DNA from: Microthyrium microscopicum
Lineage: Eukaryota
Direction of reading: 5' to 3'
Assembly (NCBI GenBank): GCA_010405405.1
Contig: MU004233.1
Span: forward strand, 65,067 to 129,066
Length of the DNA: 64,000 nt
Part shown: one piece after another, positions 15,631-64,000 of the stretch
Position numbering within the stretch: position 1 is the stretch's first letter
How the letters are laid out: each line of letters opens with the position of its first letter
Notes under the pieces: model-generated
What the model was told of the DNA's origin: nothing
Database searches by the model: none
Seen by the model: the letters and a program-made list of their open reading frames with translations, nothing else
Position numbers and translations under genes: made by a program

Positions 15631-17126
15631 TCAAGAACTAGTAGTACAGTTTTGTCTCGCATAAGCTCCATAAAATGCTGCAGCAGTTCTTTGGCTATAG
15701 GGAAGATTGTTGACGGTAACATTAGAAGCCCAGCATGTACTCATGTAACCGGTATAGAACACAAAACTGAGGCAATCGGAATGAGGCAGACAGCCTTGCG
15801 TGTAACACTCCTCGGCGGTGTCGACTTCAATGGTGACGATAGTATTAGCAGCTGGAGGACTGTCCGTGCCACCTCTGGATAGAAAATAAGGAGAGCAGGC
15901 TGATGAAGATGCGGATGCGGTGGAGCTTGTAGACGTCGCTGGTAGTAAGCTGGTTGACGATACAATGGCGCTGCTTGATGAGGGCACTGGTATGCATGAC
16001 CGGTCATAGAAGGAATATGGGCTTCCTGCAACTGCAACGAAGTTTCCAGTAACTGGAGCCGCGTACAGCAGGCAGGCACCTCCAGCCGCGAAGCTGCGAC
16101 ATGCACTATTGGCTAGACAGATGGCTGAGCAGGATGTGAAGTTGGAGTTTGCCAGTGTGTCATCGTAGAAAAACGCTTGTGGAGTTCCAGAGTCGTACCC
16201 GGGGGATCCACAGACTGCTGGTGCGGACAATGAAGTAGTAGGAGCACTGGATGTTGACGACGCCTGCTGCACTAAAACCGATGATGACTGCTGAAGTGAG
16301 GTTGACGGGGACAGCTGTACTGAGCTTGATGATGACTGCTGTCTTGAGCTTGTTGACGGCACTTGTGGTCCTGATGATGACTTTGTCGTTGGTGGCGCCG
16401 ATGATGTTGAAAGTACTGTTGCTTGAGAAGAGAACACAGATGTAGTTGACTTTGTCTGTGGCACTGATATTGAGGAAGATGATGTAACTTTAACGAGCGT
16501 GCTGCTTGCTGTTGATGTTGCTGCGATTGATTGCTTTGCTGAGGTGGAAGAGGATGATGCCGATATACACGCTTTGTCATAAAAGACATACGGGCTGCTT
16601 GTAATTTTGTTGACATTGCTTGCTCTAGTATCAAATTAGATTGGTTCTCCATGACTATTTGCATTCAACGGGTCGACAAAATAAATGGCGAGCCCCCAGC
16701 GAGTGTGATGTGTACCGCCGCACCTTATGAAGATCATACTCTCTAACTCGCATCGTATCCAATATTCCACTGTTATTTCTTCTTGTTCGAAAGGAAATAA
16801 AGCAGTTTATAGAAGAACGTAGCGGATGGGAGGCAACGAAGCTGATGGGAGCGTGCCATTTATTTTGTGCTTTGGATGGCATGCTGATTTGACTCTTACA
16901 CTGAGGTTGAATAGAGCAAGCAGGTACTGGATCCAACAGCAAAAGATTTACAGCTCGCATCATTCTGACATTGACCACTGCACCCAGCATAAGTCGCAAT
17001 GGAGGACTTGGTGCTAGAATAATATGCCGAAACACCTTTGTCATAACCGTTGACTCCACAAGATATGGATTGGGAAGAGACCAGTGTTGTTGAAAGAAAA
17101 ATAGCGAGCGAAATCGATGAAAACAT
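15631..17126 (-). CDS. secreted Ser/Thr-rich protein with three Cys-rich PAN/Apple-like modules
   Basis: ATG 17126 with signal peptide. Exon 1 is 17126-16900, the intron 16899-16625 and exon 2 runs to 15631. Repeated module CGxxGYD...C...C.....C.SFA.G..CLLY...SPY.FYD..C. Confidence 0.8.
16625..16899 (-). mobile_element. introner-like long hairpin intron (275 nt)
   Basis: GTAAG...CTAAT...TAG, frame-restoring. Perfect 14-bp inverted repeat at 16676-16689/16855-16868. Segment CATCCAAAGCACAAAATAAATG..CCCATC..TTCGTTGCCTCCCAT resembles intron 32816-32585. Confidence 0.6.
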
Positions 17127-17980
17127 CGTGAAGAGATGGTTGTGTCGGAAAGAAACGACGAGATTACGAAGCTCGTCGGCGTAGTGGAAAAAAATGCAGG
17201 AAAGTTGAAGATTTTCGTTCATAGAGAGTGACCAGGAGTTGCTCAAGACTTCTTTATGAGTTTGTAATATTGTAGATAGGCTGCAAAAAGGCTGCAATTC
17301 TTCCCGTATCTTTGTGCGCCCACAGACGGCCAAACTGAAAATTCAACCCAAAGTTCAGCTGGGCGGCATAAGGAGAGTTACACATTATTCCTACCGCACT
17401 GACAATTTGTGCGAAGGCGGGTGTATTTACCAACCAAAACGTACGAAGCGAACGAGGCGTCGAATAACCTTGCTTTGCCAAGTTGGATACCCCATACTCC
17501 GTAGCCTCATCGTGGTTGTGGCAGTTGTTCCTGGAAATAGGAGAAGCTGGTAATCAACCAGTCGTTGCCTTTAGTCTTTAAGGGATATTGATATTCTACA
17601 GCATATTCATATTCTTTGGTGAGGCCAAAATATCTCATGCTCATGGTCATAATAAGATATAAGAAGTACTTGGTATGCAGTCAAGCATTGGTGAAACCGA
17701 GGATAAGCTTTCTGATAAGCTTTATGTATGCTGGCTGGCTGAGAATGAGATCAATCCTGACTTGTCCCAGGTCATCAAGTACTGCATGGCAGTGGTGCAT
17801 GCATGGCTGGGAGACTCTGGCGCGGTCAAAAATAAGCCAGAACATTCTTAACGAGCGTTTGATGTTTGCGATCTGAGCCGAATGCTAAGACAAAAGGATT
17901 GCTAATCTGCGCAGCTCCAGGAGGAAGACAATTGCAAGTCGTGAGATTCATAGACTTTCATTCCTCGCAAAATCTCTCAA

Positions 17981-31396: not shown

Positions 31397-33069
31397 TCAG
31401 TGAGCTTGAAGCCAACCAAGCATCTGTCCAAATGCTAGCTGTTGAGCTTCCTTGATCTTTGAATCCTCGTAATCACCCAATACTGCAAAGCCGTGGGGAA
31501 CTTCAGGATATACCTTGACCTCATGTTCAATCTCGGCTTTTTCGAGTGCCTCAACACCAGCTATGCGCACCTCATCTGGGAACAGTGGATCGTTTTCCAC
31601 GCAAACCAGAATAGTCGGGACTTTAAGCTTGCTGATATCCTCAGGGGCAATTTGTGTGCCGTGAGCGATGGCGCCAACCTTGATCACCGGACCGCTCGTC
31701 GCAGCGGCTTGCGATTCCTCATCGTCTTTTGGTGCTGCGCTTTGTGGTGTAGCATTTCCGCCTTCACCGCCAAGTAAGAGAACGTATCGCGCGCCAAAGC
31801 AGTAACCCACAGCATATATGCCACCTCCATTGGCAACAGCGTCTGCGAATTCTTCCTTGGCGCCTTCGATGACTTTGTGCAGGATGGGCAAGACCTTCTC
31901 TGGCGTGTGTCTGGCAAGCCACATATCTATCATGAAGGCTTTGGCTGTGTCGGCTACACCCATTTTGATACGCTCTAGTAAAGATAGCTCTGCGCCGGCA
32001 TCAGTGACACTGTTCCCAGTTGCCGTATCGCCTCCAAACCTAGAATTCCTATCAGAACCATTGTAAATATATGATTAGAGTTTCGACTCACTGATCTGGC
32101 ATGATGACCAAAAAGCCTTCCGAAGCAAACTTGTCTGCTTGTAACTGATTGTTTGCGGATTTTAGACCAGTACCTGGATTGATTAGTATGCATTGTATGG
32201 TTTGGGTCCCTCATAAGTTGGGAACCAAAAGCGGATTTTCATACCTCCTGTCAAAAGCAGAAGCAATTTGGACGGAGAATGCGGATAGTCAGCCGGCTTC
32301 GCGATGTACACCTTGTATGGTCAACTTGGAACTTTCGAAATGTATGACATGGGACAATGGAACGTTCATACATCGACGTCTCCAAGCTTCGTAAGCTCCT
32401 AGTTTGCGAGTCAATGTAAAGAGCTTTGCAAAACTCATGAAAGCTTACTCCCGTTGGCACCTCACCAGCAGCTATATCAGTTAGCATTGCAGAGTGTAAT
32501 AGTTTGGGTGGCATGTTTTACGTGAAGGTCTATCCGTTGTACAGTGCTCACCCATTGTTGGCCCAGTTTGAGCAACAGAGTCTCCTAGAAATTCTTAGAT
32601 CAAGATTGCGAATAAAGCTAACACGCGCTGAAAAGACCAAAATGGTCTGGTCAGGATCAACAAATAGAATAATCGCATAATCCATCGCATTCGACGGCAT
32701 CCATAGCATTCGATTAGAAACGCCTTATGGGAGCCATCGAATGCGATGTGGGACACATTGATTTTGTGTTCATTGGATGTCGTCAAGAAATGCTGTTTGA
32801 CACGGCGGAATCTTACCTGCAAATTGTCAATATACGATTACGACTAGACCTGACATGCTGGAAAGATCACTTAGGCTTTTCGTGCCGAAACCGTTAAACA
32901 CCCATTGCATTCGATGGTAGCCATCGAGTGCGATGGGAGACAAGATTACTTTGGTCCATAGCATGTCATCAAGAAATATAACTTAGCATGGAGGAATCTG
33001 ACCTTGAAATGGGGAGTCTTCAACAGCGTCACTTTCGGGAGCCTTGGTGGCAAGCTCTGGGTCGGACAT
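31397..33069 (-). CDS. dienelactone hydrolase family protein
   Basis: Exons reconstructed as MSDPELATK..FQ / GDSVAQTGPTMGEHCTTDRP / ... / VYIAKPADYPHSPSKLLLLLTGG / TGLKSANNQLQADKFASEGF / final exon with GYCFGA, ENDPLF and VPHGF (Cys-Asp-His triad). Confidence 0.88.
32585..32816 (-). mobile_element. introner-like intron B (232 nt), directly abutting intron A
   Basis: GTAAGATTCC...CTAAGAATTTCTAG. Hairpin CATCGCATTCGA...TCGAATGCGATG. Colinear similarity with intron 62712-62925. Confidence 0.8.
32817..33002 (-). mobile_element. introner-like intron A (186 nt) in the dienelactone hydrolase gene
   Basis: GTCAGATTCC...ATTGACAATTTGCAG. Core hairpin CCCATCGCACTCGATGGCTACCATCGAATGCAATGGG. First ~100 nt align with intron B. 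Confidence 0.75.
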
Positions 33070-33337
33070 GATTGTAAAGTTACGACCGGTTACAGTGAGG
33101 CACTGCGATAATTCAAAGTTGATATTCGAAGATGAAAGTGAAGGTTATGTAACTAATGGTGAGCATCTGCATTCGTAGACCAAACGCCTGGATGACATCA
33201 AATAGATAAGCGCGCGGCAGCTTCTTCATGCACGCCGCATTTATATATGCGCGGGCCCGGGCGGCTGCACTTTTCACATCAGGCATCTCGCGACCACCAG
33301 CGTTGAAGCATACACCTCATTCATTGCCGGCTATTCG

Positions 33338-34641
33338 TCAATACCCGGTATTATTATAAGCAATCTCCTCCGCCTTCAGTCCTAGACCATAGTCCGAATA
33401 CTGGTCCCACGTCTCGCTGACGCCCAGCCCATTGACAGCCGCTCCACTTACATGCGCCAGCGTCGAAGTTGTCAACTCGATTACATACAAGCTTCCGCGA
33501 TGAGAGATCATACGATGAGTCCAGCTTCCCTACGTGGGCAGCATGATCGTATTCTGTATCGCCATTCTCGGTTTCGCGGTGCCGTTGGTCGCTATACTTT
33601 CGATCTGCACAGTGAACACGGCATTGACGCAAGAAGGGCACACCGTCGACGACCCTAGGAGCCAGAAACGTGATGGATCTTGGTCAAACGCGAGGTGAAT
33701 AATAGGCGCGGTACTGCCTTCAGCTGAAGAGAGCGTAAACCTCTCGATGGACGCGTCTTTGTTGATGCGGCCAAAAGGTTCCCGTGCCTGAAGTCGTGTC
33801 GCCCAGCAAAACAACCCAAGCATTTCCATCTGCTCCAGCAATTAGACCGACAGGCGTGCTGCCTTGTTTTGGGGTGACGGCGATTTCTTCGCCCTTGCCT
33901 CCATCGTTCTTGTAATGCCAGATCTTGCTACTCGTGTCAAGGCCAGAGTATACATCACCGCTAGTAGGATGTATTGCGATGAAAATTGGGCGCCCGCTGA
34001 CGGCCCAGACTTGGTGATCGTTCGGGTTGCTGATGCTAATTCTAACCTGGATTTTTTTAGTCTAAGATCCATAAAGAGCATTGTATTCTATGGAAGCCAA
34101 TATGCGCTAATATGATCATGGGGACTCTTACCACGTGCGAACTATCCTTACACGATATCCACAAATTCCCATCATTCTACAATACGCCGTGAGGTCCGAA
34201 AGCGGGAGAAGATATCGGAATGGTCTTGATAACCTTTGGGGGTGAATTGATTATTGATATCGTCGCCTTTGGGGTCGATCAGAAGCATGGCATTGTCGAA
34301 CTGAACAGTGGCCCAAACCGTGCTAGATGCGTTGGTTCCGGATCCCGGATGAAGTGCTAGTCCATGTAGACCAGACACTGATTTGTCGCAGTCCATTTAC
34401 GAGACCCGGTGGGTCGTCCATTGCTATCAAGTCCTGCCTTGATGAGACTGCCATCGGTTTGCTGGGAAATGAGTAGCAGCTCATCGCTGACGGCTTGTAC
34501 CTCGTGCGTTTCTTCAGCAGCTGGTAGAGGATATTCGACGATCGATTTGACGGGTAAGGAGCTCAGTGTGCTGGAAGTCCATTTGGGAACGGAAAAGAGA
34601 TTTCAAGCAAGTTGCACGCAGTAGGCAAACGCGACTTTCAT
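33338..34641 (-). pseudogene. degenerate beta-propeller (Vgb lyase-like) gene
   Basis: Stitched frames give EYPLPAAEETHE..LISQQTDG..SGLHGL..GPHG..PIFI..GSTPVGL..GTFGRI..IIHLAF..WTHR. In-frame TAG stops at 34177 and 33530, and frameshifts near 34380, 34240 and 33800. The start position is uncertain. Confidence 0.65.
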
Positions 34642-35411
34642 ATTAGTTTTTATATCGCACGCCAGTCAATTGGCGGATGGTGTTTATACTATTTCGAGCT
34701 AGAACACGATGCAAACGTGCCGATCTCTGTCCTCCCAACTTCCCAAGAACATGAGAAAGAAGGCAACACATTTCTGAATCCGGTAACGCTCGGTGGAGCC
34801 GCGGCGCCTCATTTGATACTACTACAAAGTAGATAATGTTACGCCCGTCCCGGATTGCCGAGGTTTAATTTCCCACGATCGTTATGGTGTACCATAAATA
34901 CGAATTCTTGTAAAACTGAGAACATGTTGATGCAGCCTTTGCGAATGGCGGTCAAACCGTCGTGTACACATGCAGCCAAGACAGCCCAGACCTCAGGGAT
35001 ACTCATTAGAGTACTTGAATACACCGGCTACATAGGTAAGGTAGGTAGTATCTTATGGCAGCCTCAGCTCTGCGACCTCATCTAGCATATTGGAGGAAAG
35101 AGAGGTTTTCAAAATACATTGTAAACGATATGGCCATGGTGACACAAATGATCATGTACAACAGATCTCGACACGCCTAAGATCTAATGATAAATTAGGT
35201 ACTAAAACAGTACCAGTAGTATGAGCGTTATCAAGTTATTACTGCAGTACTGAGCATCATGTAGCAAGTCCTGAAAATCATGGATTCATGGCAATGCCTC
35301 ATCATTAAATCTACCAAAGCCTATTCCATAGTAGGCGCAGACACGAGATTGCTAGAGCAACGATAGGCTTAGCGATCGTACAATGTAAAACTAACCGAAA
35401 CAAAACTCCTA

Positions 35412-42133: not shown

Positions 42134-44073
42134 CGTGGAATGGAGTGGCCTCTGGCCCGGCAACAGGATTAAGACGACAGGGCGCGCGACGGGAAGTTGT
42201 TGGATGAGCGATTGAAAAACTCACACTTCAGTTGAAGGCGAAAAATCACTGGTGAGAATGTAATATGAGGGTAACACGATAGTAGTAGTGGTGCGGTAAG
42301 CGGGCGGTAGGATCAATCAATTGGTAGGGGAGTGGAAGTTTTGATGTTGGATGATTGGGGTTTGGTTTGTTTACAATTTTGGGTCAGGGATTTGTAAACA
42401 ACCAGGAGCTTGGGCCATTCAACCGGGCCAGCGAGTCGCTCCTTCCTCCATCAACCAACCCCTGTCAGCCAATCATTCTCAGCCTCATGACGTTGAATTT
42501 TCGACGACTCCAACCAGACACGACAGTGCAGTCCAGACAACCTCGAGTTTGAGGCATTCGTCCCACCATGTGCTGTTCATGGCCAGCATATAAGACAACA
42601 TCCAGTACTATTCTACTGCCTATACAGTGAATATTGGCTTACCATCTCCGGGCGATTAGGGAACCCGGCTCTCCAAGAACAAAATAAACGAGCACTTTCA
42701 TCATCGAATACGTTGGTGATTGAAGAAGTCACTCTTTGATAAGTGTTATGACAGCTATCGTAATCGGTGTCAATAGTCGTCGGTAAAACTTAATAGTTTT
42801 TGTCCCCGAAGAACTAAGACACTGGAACAGCATTGGTACTAATCATCGGTCATGAAAATAATCTGTTTCGGATTGTTTTCACTCGCTCCTATTCTTTATA
42901 CCGTACTCTATCATCAAATACCTTTTCTACTATTGAGTACTTTAGATATAGCTACAAGATATTGGATATGACAGAAGTTGAAGAGTATGCTCTTTAGAAG
43001 GTGCAGTAGTAGACAAGCTGATATGGAAGTCGATGGAATCGTGACAATCTTTCTGTCGAGTGTCGACTCTTTGGCAGTACTATCACTTGTCTAGGTACGC
43101 ATGGGAAATTTTTGATCCGGCAAACCTTACGATATGTACGGTAACCAATATCAAGGCAATTCGAATTCAGCTCGCGACCCGTCCGTTGATACCCCTACAC
43201 GCCAATCTCTGAGCTGGCAACACTAAAACACACCACTTTAAGCAAATCCGCATCTACCTTCCTCAAAGGTCCAAATGATGATGATACATCAACTTGTGCT
43301 TCAAGAAATCGCCCCCCACAATCCAGCGAGATAATTCGGGTCCCCTCTTTCTAGCCAGAGCAGCTAACATTACCCCTCATCTCCAACTCGCACCATCTAT
43401 CCTGCATCCGGCGCAAAACAGACCATACTATCTTGTAAATCCACTCCCGGCACCGGGATGATAGCTCAAGAGATGAACGTTATCCAATGGGCTATACCAG
43501 GAGTAGACAGTCCAACCGGAGCCAGGAAGGCGGAAGCGCGGGTGATTCGTCTTGTACGACTGAGATCAACTCCAAGCTGCAAGCACGGGGAAAACAATCA
43601 CGCAGCAGAGGGATGAATCTGGACCAGAAGGGGAAAATTTGATAGTGGTTTTGTGCAGAATGTTGATGCACGTCGGGTGCTGTATACAGTATGCATATTT
43701 GATATGCTGAAGCACATTGGAGATTGAGCTTAGGCCTTCTCTTTATGGAGCATCGGGTAGGTTATCAGCCCAGTGAACGTTGCGAGATTAGTGGAAACTG
43801 GGGTATGGGGGTCAGATCTGTCTGGACTCTGCACCGCTCGTTTGGTTGTCAAATGTTAAATCGTGGGAGGCGTTATGGAAGGGTCCAAAATCACTCCGTC
43901 ATGAGGGGCCAAAAAGTCAATGGGAATAGGATTGGATTCTGTTGAGCTACTGCTGTTATTTCACTACATTCCACGGCGTTTGTTCTATAGGCTGCCGAAC
44001 ATATTTATATATTCTACCGGACCTGTCCTCATTTTATGCTGAATTGCTCAAACGCGATTGCGGAGGTATCACA

Positions 44074-46513
44074 ATGTTTTCGACAAATGTGGAACAAGAA
44101 CACTACATAATACCGGACATCATACGGACAAGACACCCGTTCGCCAGCTTGTCCGAAGATGAGATTGCTCAAACCGCATCTGCCATTCGAAGTCTTTGGC
44201 CCAAATCAGTCGACCTACAATTCAAGGCTTTGACCTTGCACGAGCCACCCAAGGCCGAAGTATTGGTATATCTTGAAGCGGAACACACTGGAGTCATCCT
44301 CCCCCAACTGCATCGTAAAGCATTTGTCAATTACTATATCCGGAATACAGTCAGTCGCTCCTGTTTACACTATCACTAGCGTCGATTAACTCATTTCGTA
44401 TAGAATCGATTCCATGAAGCGGTAGTCAACATCTCAAGACATGTAGTTGAGCGTAATGTCAGACTCGGGCCAAATATACATGGCCCAGCAGATGGAGAAG
44501 AAATTTTGGCCATGGAAAGAATCGCTCTAGATGATGAAGGTGTCCAAAGACAAATTCAAAAGCTAAAGCTCCCGGCGGGAACGGTTGTAGTGATTGATCC
44601 GTGGATATACGGTTCGAAAACCCAAACCTTTTGATATGCCATTGCTCACTAACATTATAGGCTCCGATGGTGTGGAAGATGATGACAGAATGTATCAATG
44701 CTTCCTGTACATGCGAGATCCTACCAACTCTGAGGAAGCTGATTCAAATCACTACGCATTTCCTCTACCAATCTCACCTGTTATCAGCACTTTGAATAGA
44801 AAAGTCATTCGAATAGACATGATCCCAACTGGAGCTGATAGTCGAGTGCGAGATGTGCAGCCATATGTTCCGAGGCTGCCGAATGAGTACATCTCAGAGC
44901 ATCAAGATTTACGAACTGATCTCAAACCTCTGCATGTTGTTCAACCAGAAGGCGTGAGCTTTCAGGTCATGGAGCAGGATGGCACAAACATCGTCGAGTG
45001 GCAAAAGTGGCGGATACGAGTGGGATTCAACCAGAGAGAAGGTGTGGTTCTTCACGATGTATGTATTTTTCTCATAGTATATCCAGCTGATTGTTGGAAT
45101 TTTCAAAATCTTGAGTCCGTCACTGACGAGTAAAAATAGGTACGCTACGACAGTCGATCATTATTTTATCGAGTATCTCTTTCAGATGCCAACATCCCTT
45201 ACGCAGATCCTCGTGCCCCTTTACACAGGAAAAGTGCTTTCGATCTCGGCGATGTAGGCGCTGGAATCATGTCCAACAATCTCAAGCTAGGCTGTGACTG
45301 CCTTGGCTCTATATACTATATGTCTGGTCTCTTAGCAGACGATAAAGGTCAACCCATGCCCATGCCAAATGTTATCTGCATCCACGAACAGGACGGAGGA
45401 ATTGGTTGGAAACACACCAACTACCGTACAGGACGCGCATCCGTCGTTCGTTCACGAGAGCTAGTCATCCAAAGCATTATCACCGTAGCCAACTATGAAT
45501 ACATTCTCGCTTTCAACTTCAATCAAGCGGCCGAAATGCACTACGAAGTCCGCGCAACCGGCATTCTCTCCACCCAACCCATCGACGCTGATGTTGGTGT
45601 TCCATATGGGACCATAATCCATCCTGGAGTTCTAGCTGTTCACCATCAACATATATTCTCTCTCCGCATTGACCCACACATCGATGATTCTCCCAACAAC
45701 CGCCTCGTCTACACTGAAGCACACCCTATGTCCATCAACGAAATCAATCCTCACGGTACGGGCTACACTATTCAGCAAACACCCATCAATACTTCTGGCG
45801 GCTACGACCTGGATTTCCAGCACAGCCGCGTCTACGCCATCCAAAATACCTCCTCCCTCAACCCCATCAACAATCTCCCGGTAAGCTCCGCGTATCAACC
45901 CACATTTTCTGCCGATGTATCAAGGGAGTGTTGACTGCCAGCATTTTGGTGGCTTCAATAGCATGTATCCTTGCTCGAGTGCTATGCTCCCAACAGATGC
46001 GATTGCTTCTGTGACGCATTTATTCATACTAACAAATCTCAGGTCAGCTACAAAATCAGTCTCCCACCTGTCCAGCCCATCCTCGCAAATCCATCTAGCC
46101 TCAACGCCAAGCGCGCTGAGTTTGCCGACCACGCGATCTACGCCGTCCGATATCGCGAAGACGAGCTCTATGCTGGTGGACGCTACACAAACCAAAGCCG
46201 GGGAGGAACAGGTGTATCCTCCTGGGCGGCGCGGAATGATGATATACTGAATCAGGACTTGGTGTTGTTCGTTCAGTTTGGGCTGAATGATGTGCCAAGG
46301 TGTGAAGACTTTCCAGTGATGCAATGCGAGAAGGTGGTGGTGGGCTTTAAGCCTGTGAACTTCTTTGGCAGAAATCCGGCAATTGATGTACCTCCTAGCG
46401 AGCAACAGGTCAATAAGAGCGTTGGCCTCAATCAGGAAGCAGGAAAGCATATGCAAGGGGCGGCGCAATTAGTGATTGAGGATGGAGGGTGCTGTGCTGG
46501 TTCTAAGCTCTAA
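44074..46513 (+). CDS. copper amine oxidase, peroxisomal (C-terminal SKL)
   Basis: HPFASLS, WQKW, AFDLGD, LKLGCDCLG, TVANYEY (TPQ site), HHQH, EDFPVM. Five introns. Confidence 0.93.
45881..46042 (+). mobile_element. introner-like intron (162 nt) in the amine oxidase gene
   Basis: GTAAG...CTAAC...CAG, in frame. TCGAGTGCTATGCTCCCA..ATGCGAT matches the family core (TCGAGTGCTATGGTTCCCA at 62809). Confidence 0.6.
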
Positions 46514-47136
46514 GAGGCTTGGAGGTGTAGAGAGGGATAGAGAAAGATTGTTTCGTGATATGACTGATGATTTATGCTTACGACTGGGGACGAGAAATGA
46601 TGGACTAATTTAACTATCAGCTATAATGCATTTTTTAATGCGAGAGGATTGGCTCTGGTGGATCGGTTGACTGTACAATTCTTTTATCTACCTAGTCCAT
46701 CAAGCCCATTAAATTTGTTTGCCTGGACAACTTACTGGGCAACAAGTCGGCAAAATATGGCGCACCCCCATCAGGTTCGCCGACTCCAGACGCTCCGCTC
46801 TTGTATTGAGTTCTTCATTTGCCGTGAAGGACGCTTAGATTCGAATGAGTTATCGAATACGACGGGAAATATAGCACCTATTGCTTAAGGCCGTTGGTGG
46901 CAGCTATCAGAGTAGATGGGAGAGCGCCATTCGTTTTGTCACGTCGTTGACTGAGAATTTTCTGTTTTTCCTCTAATATGAGCTGCTGCTAACGAGAATT
47001 CACAGCCGCAAAAATGTTCGATTAGCCTTGAAGGTCAGCCTTATCAACTCAGGCATTGACCAATCACAACTGACAAGGCTGAAAGTGGGCAGGGGTTCTT
47101 TTCACGTGACTGCGCGGTTCTCCTTCGCGAACTTAG

Positions 47137-47142
47137 ACGCGT
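47137..47142. promoter_or_regulatory. MCB element (ACGCGT) upstream of MSH2
   Basis: Exact MluI box ~60 bp before the MSH2 ATG, with nearby CGCG cores. MCB control of replication and repair genes is established in yeasts. Confidence 0.45.
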
Positions 47143-47203
47143 TACCTTTTCCAACTTCAAGATCATTTCACTGAATGCCAAACTCCGTTTCCCACCCAAC
47201 ACT

Positions 47204-50059
47204 ATGTCGTCAAGACCGGAATTGAAGGTCGATGATGAGCTAGGCTTCATCAAAGCTTTCAAAGGACTTCCTACCCTTGAAGAAGGAACGATCCGCTTAT
47301 TCGACCGCAGCGATTACTACACTGCGCATGGCGAGAACGCCGTGTTCATAGCGAAATCAGTGAGTGTAACTTCTAATGGAGGCAAGCTAGCATAGTCGCT
47401 GATAAATGACAGGTCTATAAAAGCACGTCTGTGCCTCGTCAACTTGGTCGCAATCCTGGCCTCGATTCAGTCACACTTTCCAACACAGTCTTCAAAAGCT
47501 TCCTTAGAGACGCTCTCTTCAGACTGGGCAAACGGATTGAGATATGGGAGAACTCTGGTCGCGGAAATTGGAAGCTTGCGAAACAAGCAACCCCTGGAAA
47601 CTTACAGGACATTGAGGATCAATTAGGGGAAAACATCGGCGAGCAAGCACCAATTATACTTGCAGTCAAGATCAGCGCCAAAGCGTCAGAGGTCCGACAA
47701 GTCGGCGTTTGCTTTGCAGACGCAACTGTCCGCGAGCTAGGCATCTCAGAGTTTTCGGACAACGAGCTGTACAGCAACTTCGAGTCACTTCTCATCCAGC
47801 TTGGTGTTCGGGAATGCATTGTTCAGGCAGATACGAACAACAAAGATGTTGAGTTGAAGAAGATCCGCTCAATTGTGGATAATTGCGGCTGCGCTATCAC
47901 AGTTCGATCTTCTGGGGACTTTGTTGATAGAGATGTTGAGGAGGATCTCACCAGACTCCTCAAGGATGAGAGTGCCCCAGGACGATTACCACAGACTGAC
48001 CTGAAGCTGGCCATGAGTTCTGCCGCTGCATTGATCAAATACCTTGGTCTCATGTCACAACAATCGAACTTTGGACAGTATGCGCTATATCAGCATGACC
48101 TTGCACAATACATGAAGCTGGATGCTGCAGCTTTACGCGCCCTCAATCTCATGCCAGGACCTCGAGATGGCTCCAAAACCATGAGCTTGTTTGGTCTCCT
48201 TAACCATTGCAAGACACCTATGGGCCCACGCTTACTGGCACAATGGCTCAAGCAACCATTGATGTCACTGGATGCCATCGAAAAACGACAACGGCTTGTC
48301 GAGGCGTTCGTTGAAGATACCGAGCTTCGGCAGACCATGCAGGAAGAGCATCTGCGATCAATGCCGGACTTGTTCAGGCTGACGAAGAAGTTCCAACGTA
48401 ACAAAGCTGGCTTGGAGGATGTCATCCGAGCATACCAAGCAGCATCAAAACTCTCCGGTTTTCTCGGAACATTTGAAGGTGTTATGGATGAGAAATACAA
48501 GGACCATTTGACGGCAGAATATATAACGAAACTGGAAGAATGCAACAATAGCCTTGGCAAGCTTCAAGAAATGGTTGAGACAACCATCGATCTTGATGCT
48601 CTTGATGCTCACGAATATATCATCAAATCCGAGTTCGACGAGCGATTAAAGGTGATCAGAAAGAAGCTTGATCGTGCCAAGGGTGAAATGGAGGAGGAAC
48701 ATCGCCGGGTGTCTGAAGATCTTAATCAAGACATGGAGAAGAAGTTGTTCCTGGAGAACCAAAGAGTTCATGGATGGTGTTTTCGGCTGACTCGTGCTGA
48801 AGCTGGCGCTATAAGAAACAAGAAGGATTACAAGGAGATTACTACTCAGAAGAACGGCGTCTATTTTACCACCAACAACATGCAAGATCTTCGACGGGAG
48901 CATGATCAACTTTCAGAGAACTACAACAGAACACAAAGTGGACTAGCATCAGAAGTTGTAACTGTTGCAGGTATGTCATTAAGCTCTCTTCTTCTCACTC
49001 ATCGACTAACATAAAGCAGGATCATATTGTCCTGTTCTAGAAAAGCTCGCTGGCGTCCTCGCTCATCTTGATGTCATAATCTCTTTCGCACACGTTTCAG
49101 CACACGCGCCAACGCCATACGTAAAGCCAAAGATGCACGCCCGCGGCACTGGTAACACCATCCTCCGCGAAGCCCGCCATCCATGTATGGAGATGCAGGA
49201 CGACGTCAACTTTATCACGAACGACGTAACTCTCGAGCGTGGATCCTCCGAATTTGCCATCATCACTGGCCCCAACATGGGCGGCAAGTCCACTTATATC
49301 CGCCAAATTGGTGTCATCGCCCTAATGGCCCAAACCGGCTGTTTCGTACCCTGCAGTGAAGCCGAGCTGTGCATATTCGACTGTATCCTCGCCCGTGTAG
49401 GCGCCAGTGACAGCCAGCTCAAGGGCGTATCAACATTTATGTCTGAGATGCTTGAGACTGCCAACATCCTTAAATGCGCGACTCGCGAATCCCTAATCAT
49501 TATTGACGAGTTAGGTCGCGGGACTAGCACATATGATGGCTTTGGACTGGCATGGGCAATCGCAGAGCATATCGTAAAAGAAATTGGCGCCTTTGCGCTG
49601 TTCGCTACGCATTTCCACGAGCTGACTGCACTGGCTGATCAATGGCCACAAGTCGCCAACTTACATGTCGTGGCGCACGTGGATGGCGATGACCGCCCAG
49701 GGGGCCAGCGCCAAGTGACGCTTCTCTACAAAGTCGAGCCAGGTGTCTGCGATCAGAGCTTCGGTATCCACGTTGCAGAATTAGTACGCTTCCCAGAGAA
49801 GGTGGTCAACATGGCTAAGCGCAAGGCCGATGAGCTTGAAGATTTCGAGGGCAAGCACGAGCAGGGAATGGAGTCTATTGCACCGGCGGATGTGGAGAAG
49901 GGCAGTGAGCTCTTGAAAGAGGTGCTAGTCAAGTGGAAGGAAGCCACGGAGGGAAAGGATATGTCGACTGAGGAGCAAATTTCGAAGATGCGGGAGTTGG
50001 TGGATGGTAATCAAGCGTTGCTTGACAGTCCTTTCTTCAAGGGCGTGCTGGCGTTGTAA
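47204..50059 (+). CDS. MSH2: DNA mismatch repair protein Msh2
   Basis: [12 protein letters not shown] start, DYYTAHG, Walker [41 protein letters not shown]. Two introns. Confidence 0.97.
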
Positions 50060-50981
50060 GATTATCAAAATTGCGCGTTCTAATACCCATCCTTCAAAGG
50101 TAGCTAGGCATTGGGCGAACGAGATGCCGTGATGTCGTGTATCAAGTACCTGTATATCTAATGATCAGAACCTCTATGTTCCATGTGTTATGCCTTAATG
50201 TAGTTCCGCGAACCTGGTCTTCGATCGTCCAAACATTAAATAACAAGAAAAGTAAGATAGGAATTGACAAAAAGTTCACCACCCAACTCTTTCGAGTCAG
50301 ATGGCTATGAAAATCAGGTGAACTGATTTTACTTTATTAGTGTTTTTTTGTTTTTGTTTTTGTTTAGCTTGTCGTGGAATTGAACCGGAGGCATCGTGAT
50401 TGTCGTGTATTATTATCTTGCTGAGGTGGCTGCTGTTCTGCATCAGGTTAGCATTATCAATACCAGCGGATAATGCGTCCCCTTCATCTGCGCCATTTGA
50501 ACCTAATATCGTTACGGGATTAGTACGTCAGATATTGCCAACAGTGTGTATATATAAAGCAGTATTTCCGACCAAATGGTAGCTAAGGCCTCGCAACTCT
50601 CCAACACAATTTGATGGGATGATGGCAGCCTAGTGACTTCGTGGACAAGATCATAGGCTTCAGGATATATGCTACATCCCAATTCTTTTGTCTAAAAGAG
50701 GTTCTGAGATATCAGGACTAGGTACATATGGAGTTTTGGCTCGTACTTGCCGTATTCTTATTCAATATAAAGCAGTCATTACCTGTTGAATTTCAGCAAG
50801 AACCGCTCACGAATCATCCTTGGATCCCTCAAACTCTCAGACCTCTCAACTCTTCTGCTCATCATCTCCAACCCTTCTTCATAAACCTTACCATCTTCAT
50901 CCTCGGGCTCTCAGCAATGCAAAATTTCTAAACCCACATTCATTTCCATCGTCGGACCCACCTTGAAGCGCCTACCAACTC

Positions 50982-51709
50982 ATGAATCACTACGATTTCA
51001 ACGATCAGCATTACTGCAACCCCCTACATCACCACTCCAACATAGCTTGCCCACCTCCCTACCAGCAACCTAAAGTAATGCGAGTCGAACACAAGCCAAG
51101 TCTCGCTCTCCCAGCTTCCCACCATACCAGCAATAGAGGGTTTTACAGCCCGGCATCAGACGATACGTTCTTTACCGCCCCACTCGTTCCCGCCCAAGAC
51201 ATCGTTTCTCGCCCATCGCCTGCGATGGGCCCCAGAAGAGGCGATGGGGAAATCGCACATTTGCCAAGAGGACGATCCGCGAGACGAAGTGCGTTTCCGG
51301 GACGTGGAATTCGGCTGGGAAAGCATGTTTCTGAGAGGAAAAGAGATGACATGCCGTATGTTTCGATCGTTCCCAGCCTTTTGGAATTTTGCTCAAACTC
51401 CCATCGCATTCGATGGTTCCCATCGTATCTGTTAATTATCACCGTCGATGGGCGCCATCGCATCTGATGGGAAATTTGCGTTTTTTGCTGCCCATCCGTT
51501 TCCCTTTGAAATTCACTGTTCTGATGGTGCTAATGCGATAAATCTGCAGGCCAGCCAAGATCAAAATGCACATATATCTCATCAAGATGGAACTCCGATG
51601 GCTCAAATTCCAGAACAAACATCCCATTCTACGAAGTCAACGACGGATGGATTCGCGAGCTGGACGAATTCGACGGAAAATGGATCGATTGTTTGCCATG
51701 ACAAAGTGA
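50982..51709 (+). CDS. hypothetical protein
   Basis: ATG 50982. Removing intron 51356-51549 joins an open basic C-terminal exon ending at TGA 51707-51709. Confidence 0.5.
51356..51549 (+). mobile_element. introner-like intron (194 nt)
   Basis: GTATG...GCTAAT...CAG. Contains CCCATCGCATTCGATGGTTCCCATCG...CGATGGGCGCCATCGCATCTGATGGG, the family core in nested hairpins. Confidence 0.7.
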
Positions 51710-52195
51710 TTGATGGGTCCGAGTCGCTGTTTCTTGAAATGGCCGAGCTAGTCTTTGGGAAGGAGGGTTTTGGGAAGAGAAGAGTGTGGTGATGATCAAA
51801 TCCTACGAATGACGGAAGTGGAAACTATTGGTAGATTGAGTGAACAGAGAGAATGGTAAATTGTTGTGTTGGACTAGTTGTTCTCATATGACGTGATGAT
51901 GCTGTGCTTGTGACTTGAGCTTGTGTTGAGTATGGGTTGGGTCTGGAGTGATCAGAGGCTTCCCTGATTTGAATGCGGTGTGTAATGGGTTTGATAGGAG
52001 TTCAAGGAGCCGAAGCTGTTGATTATATTACAACAAGGCTCTATGTTCACTCTCGGAGGTCAAGGCAAAAGTTTCAATCACCAATATATTCAATTTCACT
52101 AATCAAGCATAAATCAATGGGGTATCAACCATCCAGTAGCCAACTCCAAACCAAAAAGCATTCATCATACTACTAATAACATGCATCATCTGTCT

Positions 52196-52924
52196 TTAAT
52201 TTGGAAACCCCATCGAATTCCTTCGCCTCATTGGCGATGACGCCGATTGCTCCGCAGGGACCGGCTGTTCCGCCTCTTTCTCTCCGAAGATCGCTTGCTG
52301 AGAGAAAGATTTTCGATAGTCCACAAGAGCGAGTATAGCATGTTGCTGAGGTATCGACCATTTACTAGTCATAGACTCGTCAATGAACCACGCATTCAGG
52401 GATCTGAATGCGTCTTGCATCTTCCTCTCAACGTCCTTATCATTAGCGCGATCCGTCGCATCCGCCCAGGCCATCCAGTCGCTTTTGCCTTTTGGTGCGC
52501 CAGGTTCTTTGAGCCATGGAAGGAAGTGTGTGAAGACAACGATATTGCGGAATGACTTTGCGTTGCCGCGCTCAATGTTGAAGTACAAGTCTTTGACTCG
52601 CTCTTCCCATTCTTTGTTGAAGTCTTCCTTTAGTCTTCGCAGATCTCGGATGTACGAGAAAATTTTGTCGGGAGTCTCCTCGCGGTCCCAGTTGGAGTTG
52701 GTTTCGGTGAACTCGTCGATTAGTGCTTGGACTCCCGTGTAGTAGAGCATGAAGACTATCTTGAGACCGCCAGGTTGGATCTGGCCTGGATCGGGCAGTC
52801 CAATGCCATTAGTGCAGTACTTCATTAGGTCAATGTAGCGATGGAATTCGTTGTGGATCTTGACTGAGTCGTAGTCTTCTTTTGGGGGTTTCCGTTCGCC
52901 TTGGGTTCCTGAAGGAGTTGCCAT
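52196..52924 (-). CDS. hypothetical helical protein (~242 aa)
   Basis: Protein-like open frame from ATG 52924 (MATPSGTQGE). No family recognised. Confidence 0.6.
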   Translation of the reverse strand: MATPSGTQGERKPPKEDYDSVKIHNEFHRYIDLMKYCTNGIGLPDPGQIQPGGLKIVFMLYYTGVQALIDEFTETNSNWDREETPDKIFSYIRDLRRLKEDFNKEWEERVKDLYFNIERGNAKSFRNIVVFTHFLPWLKEPGAPKGKSDWMAWADATDRANDKDVERKMQDAFRSLNAWFIDESMTSKWSIPQQHAILALVDYRKSFSQQAIFGEKEAEQPVPAEQSASSPMRRRNSMGFPN

Positions 52925-54969: not shown

Positions 54970-57900
54970 ATGTCCCAATCAACTCACACCCCTGCTCCCC
55001 TGCCCTCAACTACACCTTCCACTGCTCACACCCGACCAAGACCATACTCTCTCTTCTCACCAGGCACTTTCGACTATTCTCCAACTCCTCAAGCAGTCAC
55101 TCCATCCCCTTCGCCTGCTGTCCTTCAGGATCGCGATCCCAACATCTCTGGAGTCTCCTCTGCCCTCAAGCTTCTTCGCAAACCAGCCCCAGGTCTGCTG
55201 AAGCGTCTGAAGGCATTGGATACACGAACAAAACGTCGCAAATCCCTCCCCGAACCTGACGTTGGTCGCATCCCCGAAGAACAGATTCGCGAACTCGACA
55301 GCCTCCAAAAGTTACGGAACGAAATCACAATCCAGCGGCGCGGCCGGCCGTGGACTCCGCCAAGGTCGTCGCTGCCTGATTCTGAAAACCCTATGGCTCT
55401 ATCAGGACCTCAACAGCTTGGGTTGGGGGACTCCTTCCAGAGTTCGGTTATGGCTGCATTGGCTGATCATGATGATCATGAAGCCAGTGACTTGTCTTCA
55501 GTCATCAGTACTAGTGATCATCCTGTCCTCTCCGAATCGGACGCAAGCGAAGAGATTCTGGATACTCAGAAATATCATCTTCCAGACATGGGTATGGCTC
55601 TCTCGCGTCATCTGATGGCCATTGATGGATGGACAGAATGTATGGCACAACCCCTCGAGGAACTTGACTATCATAGACCTTCATAAGAGGAGTGTGCTTT
55701 TTCTCCATGGCATGCGATGAGTCTTTGATTTGTCAACGCATTCTATGGTGAAACAGGCACCCCATCAAGCCAAGTAAACTGGAAACAGAAGAGTCACAGG
55801 GTCCCGCTATATATTTTGTCCATTCGTCTTGCGCCAGCAAAGTGCACAATACTGATCGCAAAATGCTAACTACAATAGGCAAATCTCGTGGCTCTTCACG
55901 CGCTGGATTCATTCTAGAGGATGGAAGAGCTGTTGAGCGCGATAGACCGCCGTCTCCACCCCCTAAAGATCCTCAATACATACCGAACCGCCCAATCTCC
56001 ATGTCTACGGAATCCCTCAATGGAGATCGCGAGGATCCATATTTCAATCCATACGGACTGCAAAGAACGGGTTCCATATACACACTTTCAAGAGCCTCGC
56101 TTTCGAATCAGCTTCAACAGCTCACCTCTATCAAACTTCCAGATTCCTCTTCGCTGGAATCGAGTATTGCATCAATTCCAACTTCTGTCGCTGCTGCCAA
56201 GGTCCTTAACGATGCCGCCCATCAGATACGGATTTGGATCAAAAAGGCAAATGAGGTCTTGGAAACGTTGGACGCCGAGGACGATGTTGAGTGGGCCGCT
56301 GCAGCTGGTCGAGAAGGACTCGGCGAAGTGGACACTGCTATAAATGTCTTTGAGCGACTCATAATTGTCTTTGTTAATGCTATCGAAAACCTCGAATCGA
56401 GACCGGATATTCAAAGCATACCAACTTCTGATCAGACGGCAATTGTTGATCGTATGGAAAAGATACTGGAAGATTGGGAAAAGATAAAATCGTCACTGAA
56501 CAAGACGAAGGAACAGGTTGAAATCGCCATGGAATTTGAAGAGCTCTGGAATACTGTTCTGGGCGAAATTGGAATGGAACAAGACAAACTCAGCCGTTTA
56601 ATCTTTGAGATGGAAGAGAGACGCCACAAAAACAGTCTACTCGATGCAATGGCAGAACCTGGTCAAGGCTTGGATATCAAGGAACTCGAAACTATTGTTG
56701 AGGAGGCACCTGGTCGGGCTATGGATGCTCGTGCAGGAGCCAGCAAGATCAGTCTCGTCGTAGGCTTTGAAGATGCTGAATCTGCAGTACCACAGGAAGC
56801 TCCAAGTCAAGAAGTCTCCAACCTTTTGGCGTTAACAGCTCGTATGCAGCCTCTACGCGCATCGCTTGATTTCTTGCCAATGCGCCTGGCTGGTTTCCTA
56901 CATCGCGGAAAGGATCTCTTCCCCTCGGCGTGTGAGGAGCTTGACAGTCGTATGCAGACATTAGAAGCCAGATTCAAGAAACTACAGGGCGATGCTGAAG
57001 CTTTGCGAAAAGAACTTGGCGAGGATCGATGGGTTTTGATTTTCCGAAAAGCCGGTCGACAAGCACTTAAGATGTGCGAATCTGTCGAAAGAAGTGTCGC
57101 CAAATTGCGCGAGTCCTTAGACGAAGGAATACATCACACCAACCCCCCAGCTTTGACCAAGAAAATCGAAAACTACGAGGCCAAGCGAGAACACTACGGC
57201 CCTGCTATCCAGCAAGTTTTGGCTATCATAGATCGTGGTGTTTCATCGCGTTTGACTGTCAATGGCGAGATTTTGAGACTACAAGCAGACATGCAGCGTC
57301 GGTGGGCGGATATCGAAGGTCTTATGAAGAGCATGGATTTTGCACTTGATCAGTTGAACATTTCGCGGCATCGGCAACTACGAGATTCGGTATCAACGGT
57401 TCTTTCCGAGCAACGCTCAATCGCAAGCAGCACTGGTACACTGGTTGATACCCCTGGTAGTTCACCTGCATCTTCGATCGTTCTTCTCAACCATCGGAGG
57501 GCCAGCGATAACGGTTCAACGACCCCTTTCAGTTCCAAGTCAAGACAAAGTAGTTTCACGAGCAACACAACCGCACGAGGAAAGCGAATGTCAAGTCTCC
57601 CAACCCCAAACAATGCTGGTGGTGCAAGAAAGATCCCATTGGGAAAAGCCAGTGCATCGAACCTTCGCTCAGGTGTCATTGGCGCTTCGTCGCGATTGTA
57701 TCCGCCTCCAACTCCAAGAAGTGTATCAAGACAAGAAGTTATCGAGGAGCGACCGTCAAATAAGCCCAGATGGAACTCGTCCACAAACACGCATGACACT
57801 GCAATAGGACATAACTTTAAACCTCTCTCTGCCACAACTCCATCACCTTATCGCAAAGGTATGCCAGCTCTTCGATCGCCTCGCAGCTTCTCACACTCGA

Positions 57901-58583
57901 CAACCACAAACTCTACCATCCCATCGCCTCTTGGTCCAGGCTCTCGACCAGCAAGCGCTGTACCTCCAACCACCCCTCTTGTCCAGCCAAAGCGGAGTCA
58001 TATCGGGTTGAGACCGCCAGCCTCTTCTTCCCATACCACCACCGGAATCCCTCAATCGAATCGAACAAAATCATCATCCCATATACCCACTACCCCTCGC
58101 TCCGCTCTACCCCGAGGCACATCCTTCGTCACTCCCGGCGCAACTCCACATACCCCTGGTCGACCAGAATCGCGGCACTTCTCCCATTCCTCCATTGCGT
58201 CCTCAACTTCCACCCACACCTTGACAGAGCGCAACCTCCAACGCAACGCGTCCATGCCTACGCCTCAAGATACACCCTCCTCATCCACTGCCGACGCCCA
58301 GCCCGACGACAGCCCATCTTCACGCGGTACAGCTCGACCAAGCAGGCCCGGCACCGCCATGGCTCTCGGTGGTAACAGACGCCAAAGTCTCCTCCCGCAG
58401 CCAAAGCGCGCTGTCAGCCACGTCGCCACCGCCGCAGCAGCCTCCGCCATGACCACAGCCGCAAATGGTCGAACAAGTCGCAGTGGTTCTACTACCACGA
58501 ATGGACGTAATAGCCGCATGGGCAGAATGTCGAGTCTCGGCACTAATGCCAGCGACGAGAATAGACCAAAGTGGAGAGGCTAG
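54970..58583 (+). CDS. KAR9: karyogamy/cortical microtubule-capture protein with KAR9 domain
   Basis: GSIYTLSRAS, EDDVEWAAA.GREGL, LFEMEERRH, ARMQPLRASLDFLPMRL, LRKELGEDRW, RLTVNGEILRL and a basic S/T/P tail ending KPRWN..RPKWR. Intron ~55640-55878. The start position is uncertain. Confidence 0.85.
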
Positions 58584-61508: not shown

Positions 61509-62172
61509 CGTTGCGCTTCAGCTGTAGTATTTTGCTGACGTGAATTGTTGCGCTCCGGTCGGATGTTGTTGGTTGAAAGTTGATGGAGAGTTCTTCACAA
61601 AATTTAGTGTGTGTAGTGGGCGCGAAGTCTTGGCATCGCGGCTCCACATTTCTAAGCGCGCGGCTCTGCCCAACGACAACTCAACTCCAATGTTTTATCC
61701 GAGTCCATTTTGACCATCTGCAAAGGTAAATTTCGCATGTACGAAGATCTGGAGATCGGGTAACTTTGTGGAACGAATACAACAGCAAGTTGTCAAAGAT
61801 TTGGCCCTTTTGCGGAGCGCCAAACCATCGACAAAACGACCAGCGTGCTCAGCTGCTCCCATGCTATATCTTTGATCCAGTGCTTTATTTCCCAAAGACA
61901 GTCATAAATTCTTGACCGTTCAGCGAGTACGCTGGCAATCAAAGTAAACTGTGATGAGAGACACCACAGTCGATGGGAGCGCATCGCTTATTGTGTCAAC
62001 CCATTGATACGCCAACTTGTCTTGTCCCCTATTCGCCAACTTGATCCTTCAATCCCACGAGTGCATCCTCATCCCTCAACCTTGTCGCAACTGCCTTGAT
62101 ATTAACCCCTAGCATCTGCCGATGCCTTCAAAGAAATGCCTCCAGGTTGAATGACCCGGCTCTTATATCACC

Positions 62173-64000
62173 ATGTGGTTCCTTATCCGTGTAGCTCTGG
62201 CGGTAGTGACGAGCTTTGTCTCACTATCTTATGGTTCTCAAAGCGTCCTGTCTGCAGGAGATCATCATATTCCTCAAGCAGTAAGCACATAATCTCCAAC
62301 AGGAACCCTGCGCAGGTATATTAACAAGCCAGTGTAACGCCATTGAACTGGCCATCAATGGCGATGTCTACCACCGCCGTACATCCGAGTACAATGACCA
62401 GCAAAAGGATTACTGGCTACTGCAACAAGCAAAGGACTATTCGCCTCATTGCCGCGTCACTCCTCGGGATGCCAAGGATGTCAGCATTGCTCTGAAGCTT
62501 TTTGGCAAACATCAGACTCCATTTGCTGTCAAGAGCGGTGGCCATAGCTTTCTCTCCGGGGCTTCCAATATCAACAATGGCATTACGCTCGACCTATCGC
62601 GCCTAAATTCAATCAAGCTATCAGAAGACAAGCAAAGCGTTCGGCTGGGTCCCGGCGCTACCTGGAAGGAAGTCTACCAGGTCCTTGAACCACTTGGTCT
62701 CACAGCACTTGGTAAGATTTCCCCATTTGGCATCTGAAATGTCTTGACAACATTCGATAAACGGGAAAAACGTCGTTTCATCATCGGAATCAATGGTAGC
62801 GTTTCTAATCGAGTGCTATGGTTCCCACTGAGTACGATGAGCCCTCCATGGTTTCACCCCGAAAAGATATGATGGTTGTCTCGGGCGTGTTTGCTCTCAC
62901 TGTAATAAAATACTGACAATGCCAGGTGCGCGAGCCGGTAGCGTGGGCGTAGGAGGATTCATTCTCGGTGGAGGATCAACATGGCTCTCGAATCGCCATG
63001 GATGGGCAGTAGACTCAGTACTGGAGTTTGAAGTCGTTGTCTACGGCAAGATCAAAACTGCATCAAGCACAGAGAACCCCGACCTATTCTGGGCTCTCAA
63101 AGGAGGCGGCAGCAACTTTGGCATCGTTACTGCCATCGCAATGGCCACTCATCCCCTTGGCGATCTTTATGTCTATGGTCAAAGCTGTCCCCAAGAATCA
63201 GTACCGCAAGGCCTTAAGGCGCTACAAAGCTTCACTGACGCCGGCTCAAACGATACTGGCTCTAGTGCAATAATGGGCGTCATGTTCACTCCGGGCCAGG
63301 AAGAACTCGCCGCAGCCATAACAGTTGTGAATATAGACAACGACCTGAATGCTGAAGGCTTGAAGTATTTTACGGACATACCGCAGTTTCATGCTGACAA
63401 CTTTACGATCAAGTTGACTGAACTCAGTGATCAAATGAGCCAGTATGCTGATCGAGAATATCGGAAGATCAAATTCTCGATTACTGTACATAACAACGCT
63501 ACTCTTCTTGGTCATTTATTTGAGGAATTGGAGAATTTGGTCCGCGATCATGATCTTGATGATATGCTTGGTAAGTTCATTTCGTCTCAAGTGGATTCTG
63601 AGAGCATGCCAACATAAAGTTCGTGATTTACGTATGACACCTCGGCCAGTCTATTACAGCTCTGGCTCCCATTTTGCCATTCTCATGCGTAAATCAATGA
63701 CAAATTTCCGCTAACATCGTACAGCCTTGGGCACTAGCTTCCAACCACTCACCAGATCGCATATCAGCAACCGCAACAATGCTCTCGGACTCTCTCACGT
63801 CACCTCTGGTCTAATGCTAGTCTCCTTTGAAATCTACTGGTCGGACGCCGCCAACTCCACCTACTTCGAAAAGCTCTCCAGAAATTTACATGACAAGCTC
63901 TGCGCTCGGGCAAGCGAGAAGCAAATGCTGCACAGATTTACATATCTGAACTATGCGGCAAGCTGGCAGGAACCGTTCAGTGGCTATGGAACAGAGAGTT
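62173..64000 (+). CDS. secreted FAD-binding oxidoreductase (BBE/6-HDNO-like), 3' end beyond the window
   Basis: Signal peptide, FAVKSGGH, GARAGSVGVGGFILGGG, DLFWALKGGGSNFGIVT, FTYLNYA. Confidence 0.9.
62712..62925 (+). mobile_element. introner-like intron (214 nt) in the FAD oxidoreductase gene
   Basis: GTAAGATT...CTGAC...CAG, restoring LTALG|ARAG. 62799-62821 matches the reverse complement of 32701-32723 at 22/23. Confidence 0.8.

Follow-up and report, generated by a model that had tools for sequence, protein, structure and literature searches.

The window analysed here, a 64,000-nt (64-kb) stretch of contig MU004233.1 (positions 65,067 to 129,066) of the Dothideomycete fungus Microthyrium microscopicum, carries five genes that hold six long introns related in sequence (I1 to I6; coordinates in Table 1). 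The hosts are unrelated, as a preliminary description made from the letters alone had maintained: a Pfam scan of 44 open reading frames (ORFs) identified a PAN/apple-domain protein (host of I1), a dienelactone hydrolase (I2 and I3), a copper amine oxidase (I4) and a flavin adenine dinucleotide (FAD) oxidase (I6), and the fifth host, a 177-aa protein (I5), has no Pfam match. That description took the introns for introner-like elements (ILEs), which are the chief source of intron gain so far documented in some fungi and whose mode of copying is unsettled; ILEs of Dothideomycetes were reportedly described by van der Burgt et al. in 2012. The sequence evidence comes from this one window, one public sequencing run (X1) and the literature. 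It points to a genuine introner-like family, old and in decay, with at its centre a palindrome that resembles a miniature inverted-repeat transposable element (MITE) and is also found outside introns: I2, I3 and I6 are whole-intron homologues, I1 and I4 are partial or decayed members, and I5 shares the palindrome only.

GT..AG ends in transcript orientation are present in all six segments. Splicing was followed in X1 contigs aligned over window positions 32400-52399 (20 kb), a range that leaves I1, I6 and the sequence at 61910-62024 outside. The run type of X1 is labelled 'RNA? (a guess)', and it was treated as transcript-derived solely because ten canonical GT..AG segments are missing from its contigs. 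Among these, I4 (162 nt) and I5 (194 nt) are exactly absent, and 32585-33002, comprising I2 and I3, is missing as a single 418-nt block, so that all three family loci within the aligned stretch are skipped exactly in RNA. Because the RNA shows I2 and I3 removed as one block, their inner boundary (32817|32816) was placed by homology. Either unit of this pair, if retained, introduces a stop codon within 37 codons, and no partly spliced form was present among the X1 contigs, which drop rare variants and are hence uninformative on this point. The remaining seven of the ten joints span 49-81 nt, in keeping with the initial observation that most introns here are short, and the downstream exons of two more short introns (50 and 60 nt) match the loose-end letters of X1 at 32448. 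Compared with the seven ordinary RNA-supported introns, the long ones measure 162-275 nt (418 nt for the pair).

For the two introns outside the X1 alignment, the junctions were read from proteins. The exon upstream of I6 aligns to the solved chain 9p1o_A up to residue 119 (query residue 140) and the frame after it aligns from residue 117 of that chain, at residue 24 of the frame; counted from the splice sites, the two exons meet gaplessly at 9p1o_A residues 121/122/123. The spliced frame across I1 has no stop codon, and the homologue P0001 spans its junction codon 148 with 51% identity, gapless over 74 residues. Intron phases are 2 (I1), 1 (I2 plus I3), 0 (I4), 2 (I5) and 1 (I6). All six segments thus hold up as introns, with RNA for the I2-I3 block, I4 and I5 and gapless protein colinearity for I1 and I6.

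A 17-mer core, CCCATCGCATTCGATGG, has 11 matches with at most three mismatches in the window against 0.09 expected, a count reached by none of 100 shuffles, and occurs exactly in I5 at 51400-51416. A 23-mer is 22/23 identical between 32701-32723 (I3) and 62799-62821 (I6), as had been reported, and is found nowhere else in the window. When pairwise local alignments were scored against 200 dinucleotide shuffles, each of the six introns had at least one partner above all 200, with uneven strength: z was 25.7 for I1 versus the copy at 46708-46958, 21 for I2-I3, 18.6 for I3-I6, 10 for I2-I6, 7.3 for I1-I3, 6.1 for I3-I4 and 5.2 for I4-I6 (0 of 200 shuffles for each of the last two). Owing to the palindromic core, the I2-I5 and I3-I5 pairs reach about 10 whichever orientation is used. 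The first 90 nt of I2 and I3 are 73% identical, and positions 21-74 of I1 resemble I3. The claim that all six introns share sequence therefore stands for every one of them, but in I5 it extends to the core only, in I4 it is weak and in I1 it concerns an internal module.

Other X1 contigs share 95% identity or more with the cores of I2 and I5 and then continue into unrelated letters (at 32914-32938 and 51416), and one contig (depth 18.9) has 32 other letters in place of the 3-nt loop of I2. These loose ends suggest that the transcriptome holds additional copies of closer similarity. A 22-mer common to I2, I3 and I5 had no exact match in metagenome contigs. Within the window, long introns included, neither Rfam families (at the gathering score) nor tRNAs were detected, nor any small nucleolar RNA or other known RNA.

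Homology up to both splice sites, ending at the exons, sets ILEs apart from repeats nested in ordinary introns. Each intron was therefore divided at the core, which gave a leader that runs from base 7 up to the core and a trailer that runs from the core to a point 3 nt short of the intron end; leaders and trailers were each compared alone with 500 shuffles, the 5′ consensus being left out of the leader test and the YAG out of the trailer test. For I2-I3, no shuffle reached the score of either leader or trailer, and none reached that of the I2-I6 trailer. The I3-I6 alignment begins at the first intron base even with 40-nt flanks on offer (leader, 2 of 500 shuffles; trailer, 10 of 500), which bears out the end-to-end colinearity first described for these two. 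The leaders of I3-I4 (1 of 500) and I3-I1 (0 of 500) also pass. The exon flanks behave differently from the introns, as none of 20 pairs beat shuffles; with looser gap costs the I2-I6 alignment extends about 17-20 nt into the upstream exons, and a direct test of those flanks showed no similarity. The preliminary description had named homology to the splice sites as one of the points on which the family could fall: it was found over the whole intron in I2, I3 and I6 and in part in I1 and I4, but not in I5.

The full-length copies have a common anatomy. Their leader of about 65 nt opens with GTAAGATTCC (GTCAGATTCC in I2), thereby carrying its own 5′ splice site, and is followed by a central palindrome with CCCATCG...CGATGGG arms and by a trailer of about 80-90 nt with a branch-site-like motif 10-15 nt before the YAG. 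In I3 a 16-bp stem encloses an inner hairpin, and the trailer holds the branch-site-like CTAAG and then TAG; in I2 the arms are 17 nt and the loop 3 nt. The double palindrome of I5 has 27-nt arms (81% complementary) and I1 has 23-nt arms (87% complementary), and no inverted repeat was found in I4. The inverted repeats of I2, I3 and I6 occupy the middle of the intron, not its ends, and in I1 and at 46706-47005 they lie at the level of the module. Folding energy relative to shuffles was low for I3 (z −5.5), I5 (−3.0) and I1 (−2.8) and marginal for I2 (−1.9), as compared with −1.5 to +1.1 in eight ordinary introns. Hairpin folding, proposed for the family at large, is thus supported in I3, I5 and I1 but not in I4 and I6 (z −0.5 each).

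The two units in the hydrolase gene join head to tail with zero bases between them: I2 ends in ...TTGCAG and is directly followed by the opening of I3, so that the junction reads ...CAG|GTAAGA... and each splice element stays whole. I6 maps to this inner junction with both its ends, its trailer to within 6 nt of both I2-trailer ends and its first base on the first base of I3. The repeated unit is therefore delimited as one intron, neither more nor less, even at an end that borders no exon, and the zero-spacer join likewise points to the intron itself as the unit that is copied. A narrow literature search, which covered the 'tandem' and 'adjacent' passages of Collemare et al. 2015 (PMC4457414), returned no description of a zero-spacer tandem introner pair. 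A tentative possibility, which we consider unlikely, is that the pair records the insertion of an introner copy precisely at the boundary between a resident copy and its exon. If so, such exact-junction insertion would be a prediction of reverse splicing into a pre-mRNA-like target and not of cut-and-paste with target duplication, and the pair together with the free MITE-like palindrome would suggest that the introner arose by capture of a mobile hairpin in an intron, which thereafter spread in its entirety.

Table 1. Members of the intron family and their unspliced relatives in the window.
Feature	Position	Strand	Host or setting	Description
I1	16625..16899	-	PAN/apple-domain gene	internal module of ~211 nt (~16657-16867) with inverted-repeat bounds, ~30 nt on each side
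I2	32817..33002	-	dienelactone hydrolase gene, after codon 22 (phase 1)	full-length copy without central loop; 5′ unit of pair; RNA shows outer boundary 33002
I3	32585..32816	-	dienelactone hydrolase gene	full-length copy; 3′ unit of head-to-tail pair; RNA block; colinear with I6 from position 1
I4	45881..46042	+	copper amine oxidase gene	weak, decayed member; RNA joint
I5	51356..51549	+	177-aa protein gene	double palindromic core; unrelated leader and trailer; RNA joint
I6	62712..62925	+	FAD_binding_4 oxidase gene	full-length copy, hairpin decayed; colinear with I3 and I2
E467	46706..47005	+	between amine oxidase stop codon and MutS-family gene	unspliced relative of the I1 module
E619	61910..62024	+	~150 nt upstream of FAD oxidase start codon	decayed partial copy
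57-nt fragment	42959..43015	+	transcribed region upstream of amine oxidase coding exons	matches I1 positions 135-191

Relatives outside introns were sought with an nhmmer profile trained on seven copies (the six introns and 46660-47006), for which E values of 1e-22 to 1e-45 (2.4e-32 for E467) arise by construction; beyond the training set the best matches were E619 (E 0.0015) and 51204-51261 (E 0.018). The kinship of E467 rests on its alignments with I1: 46750-46958 and I1 positions 32-243 are 62% identical over 211 of 275 nt. E467 has 16-nt inverted arms, and the parts of it that flank 46750-46958 resemble none of the intron leaders or trailers. An unbroken piece of X1 contig 3 covers 46042 to 46863, with no splicing of E467 there. 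E619 aligns with I1 positions 188-250 (z 11.4; 0 of 300 shuffles), and no inverted repeat was found at 61840-62060. The fragment at 42959-43015 is 75% identical to I1 over 57 nt (E 9e-07) and lies within an unbroken X1 piece (42853-44349). All three copies align better in the sense of the neighbouring transcript, a three-of-three agreement that is not significant. The preliminary description had presented the family as one of introns; the unspliced copies at 46750-46958, in a 3′ untranslated region or spacer, and at 61910-62024, upstream of a gene, show that it is not restricted to them. Three weak profile matches, 51204-51261, 42673-42769 and 55701-55749, were not counted as members. The first of these lies unspliced in coding exon 1 of the I5 host gene and holds a palindrome like the family core (CCCATCGCCTGCGATGGG); a surrounding stretch of 81 nt has a fold z of −3.1.

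The junctions were compared, exactly and with gaps, for target-site duplications of fixed length, and nothing consistent emerged, with none in I1, I5 or I6. The junctions of the tandem pair are similar (9 of 1,000 shuffles), yet rank only fifth of 13 introns. An imperfect direct repeat of about 22 nt spans the I4 junctions (45866-45893 and 46028-46055; 4 of 1,000 and 6 of 2,000 shuffles; first of 13 introns), in that the upstream exon end resembles the branch site and acceptor of the intron and the downstream exon start resembles a 5′ splice site. This repeat could be a long target duplication or chance. Origin of I4 as a tandem duplicate of the adjacent exon was ruled out, as similarity to the upstream and downstream exons was reached by 116 and 198 of 500 shuffles, respectively. 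An excess similarity of upstream exon ends to intron ends varied with window length and was dropped except for I4.

As had been stated earlier, the copies bear no signature of repeat-induced point mutation (RIP): their RIP index, (CpA+TpG)/(ApC+GpT), is 1.2-2.1, like that of the rest of the window (1.33). From general knowledge of RIP, copies may be spared when too short and too diverged. Separately, the first 10 kb of the window (1-10000) are gene-free, 20% G+C and strongly RIP-like (TpA/ApT 1.62; (CpA+TpG)/(ApC+GpT) 0.09), with internal repeats that include a 152-nt inverted pair (3841-3990 and 6734-6885; 95% identity).

Some features of the hosts and neighbours were also recorded. The I1 host (15634-17342, − strand) has at least two apple/PAN-type repeats; the intron is in the first only, at ...LLYSTSV|ASNV..., and the second, encoded in a single exon, is intronless at the matching site, which is the sole and indirect hint that an intron position was gained. 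Its PAN-domain exon had only two protein matches, both from M. microscopicum (found at the 'longer' length setting). Exon 2 of the FAD oxidase returned at least 597 pattern-matched stretches in metagenomes, of which at least 560 encode a relative, the best 80 being distant paralogues of 33-54% identity, with no orthologue among them. A second FAD oxidase gene in the window aligns with the I6 host over residues 162-218 and 123-151 only, which does not place the junction. On the − strand, 35415-42227 is a transcribed open frame of 2,271 aa with one 65-nt intron near its 5′ end and no Pfam match at E 0.001. The best named matches of a KAR9-family protein (55752-58580) are in Tothia fuscella (59%), Verruconis gallopava (53%) and Venturia (51-53%), with metagenome proteins at up to 69%; these matches place the window in a Dothideomycete of that neighbourhood.

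Taken together, we lean towards reading the long introns as relics of a long-past burst of an introner-like element, and consider it somewhat probable that the three full-length copies reflect copying of the whole intron. The burst is taken as old and not active because the copies, described from the outset as diverged, are only 58-66% identical (I2, I3 and I6 over their full length). The family may be lineage-specific and intron-generating, as it had been labelled. The copied unit would be a complete spliceosomal intron consisting of leader, central palindrome and trailer, as in I2, I3 and I6; placed in the sense strand, it would become part of the gene's transcript and be taken out by the normal spliceosome, as the RNA shows at three loci, which would make its insertion harmless. 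The hairpin probably pulls the ends of the over-long intron together. The palindrome would be a MITE-like module in its own right, with copies in untranslated region or spacer, upstream of a gene and inside unrelated introns (I5, probably I1). Intron-level copying, either by reverse splicing into an exon-intron junction or by local duplication, would fit the pair better than cut-and-paste with target-site duplications, and decaying copies would lose hairpin stability (as in I6) and then recognisable sequence (as in I4). A number of observations tell against this reading. I2, I3 and I6 are far from the near-identity that marks active elements; only three copies are full-length, two of them in one gene, and 'multi-copy' refers to a single 64-kb window. 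The similarity of the I3-I6 trailer and of the I2-I6 leader (7 of 500 shuffles) is modest, the leader and trailer tests of I5 against the others are all non-significant, with the core alone in common, and I4 and I6 fold no better than shuffles. Three relatives are non-intronic, and I1 without the shared internal module leaves about 55-60 nt, an ordinary intron size, as for a repeat nested in an old intron. The role of the hairpin in splicing and the copying mechanism, moreover, rest on inference.

Part of this evidence is what would be left by a plain MITE-like palindromic repeat that landed in pre-existing introns and elsewhere and created no introns. I5 has the core alone, the I1 module is internal with 23-nt inverted-repeat bounds and flanks that add up to an ordinary intron, the same module stands unspliced at 46750-46958 and 61910-62024, and this very confounder has been described in three other fungi (Collemare et al. 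2013, PMC3609843). An older intron with a nested repeat explains I1 and I5 no less well than an introner does. For the family as a whole, the plain repeat appears rather unlikely, since in I2, I3 and I6 the similarity passes beyond the palindrome to both splice sites and halts at the exons, these introns without the palindrome leave 120-165 nt and not 49-81 nt, and the pair consists of two complete units with zero bases between. The non-intronic copies, and the inverted repeats of I1, I2, I3, I5 and 46706-47005, would also suit a DNA-transposon introner, that is, a non-autonomous cut-and-paste element with splice signals that would insert anywhere in the DNA and survive in genes only in the spliceable orientation; the imperfect direct repeat across the I4 junctions speaks for it as well, as do the intergenic intron homologues, sometimes with flanking duplications, described in Zymoseptoria (PMC5647799). 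We nevertheless find such an origin unlikely: the inverted repeats of the full-length copies are internal instead of terminal, I1, I5 and I6 show no consistent target-site duplication and the pair ranks low in junction similarity, no spare bases separate the units of the pair, the non-intronic copies lack leader and trailer, and the Pfam scan of the 44 ORFs, beyond which no search was made, shows no transposase. Chance resemblance through splice signals and low-complexity palindromes could draw on the short links of I4 and on the I3-I6 trailer score, yet it is highly improbable, being already contradicted by the core count, by the shuffles (pair z of 10-26; 0 of 200) and by the leader and trailer tests, and the two best profile matches outside the training set likewise speak against it.

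If the long introns are indeed remnants of an introner burst, this one 64-kb stretch presents the full range from a free palindromic module through a module nested in an intron to whole-intron copies and a zero-spacer tandem pair. Such intermediates bear on whether introners come from hairpin transposons and on whether the copied unit is the intron itself. Literature searches with the core motifs as text, and for Microthyrium together with introner, found no paper.

Among known systems, ILEs are high-copy, near-identical introns in unrelated genes with canonical signals, about twice the normal length and of lower folding energy, that account for most intron gains and decay to regular introns; repeats inserted in regular introns were explicitly left out of ILEs (Collemare et al. 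2013, PMC3609843). The window family resembles them in being canonical spliceosomal introns of unrelated genes in a Dothideomycete host, with homology over the whole intron in three copies, about two to four times the ordinary intron length, stable predicted structure in the better-preserved copies and visible decay. Unlike ILEs, the window copies are 58-66% identical instead of near-identical, three are full-length in 64 kb, and two abut head to tail, as in none of the 'tandem' or 'adjacent' passages of Collemare et al. 2015 (PMC4457414). In Zymoseptoria tritici, Wu et al. 2017 (PMC5647799) describe IIHEs, intergenic homologues of introns, sometimes with flanking duplications. Here, too, introns have recognisable homologues outside genes and similarity falls at the flanks, but the best intron-spacer pair of the window reaches 62% over 211 of 275 nt, below the threshold for IIHEs of 80% or more identity across 80% or more of the length, and the spacer copy is without intron ends. 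The symmetrical intron families of Hypoxylaceae, low in copy number and integrated seamlessly with no target duplications (Fekete et al. 2021, PMC8469720), are matched by low-copy symmetrical introns with seamless integration and no consistent target-site duplications, by symmetry that fades in older copies and by more than one copy in one gene. Those sister stwintrons have terminal inverted repeats of 45-55 nt and a donor split by an internal intron, whereas the window units have internal repeats and intact splice elements and abut one another; Hypoxylaceae, moreover, are Sordariomycetes and the window family belongs to a Dothideomycete.

Finally, in supplementary file 6 of Gozashti et al. 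2025 (PMC12130899), a survey of transposon-derived introners across eukaryotes, M. microscopicum, Tothia fuscella, Venturia species and Verruconis gallopava are each entered as '0 0', which on our reading, made apart from the column headings, stands for zero introner families and zero introners. The copies of the window family have presumably diverged too far to register in a screen for recent activity. On that reading, an old and decayed family in a lineage scored zero by a large screen suggests that introner bursts extend more widely than screens for near-identical copies reveal. Like the transposon-derived introners of that study, the window family consists of repeats that are removed as introns and have relatives outside genes, and it belongs with the intron-spawning elements known from related fungi.

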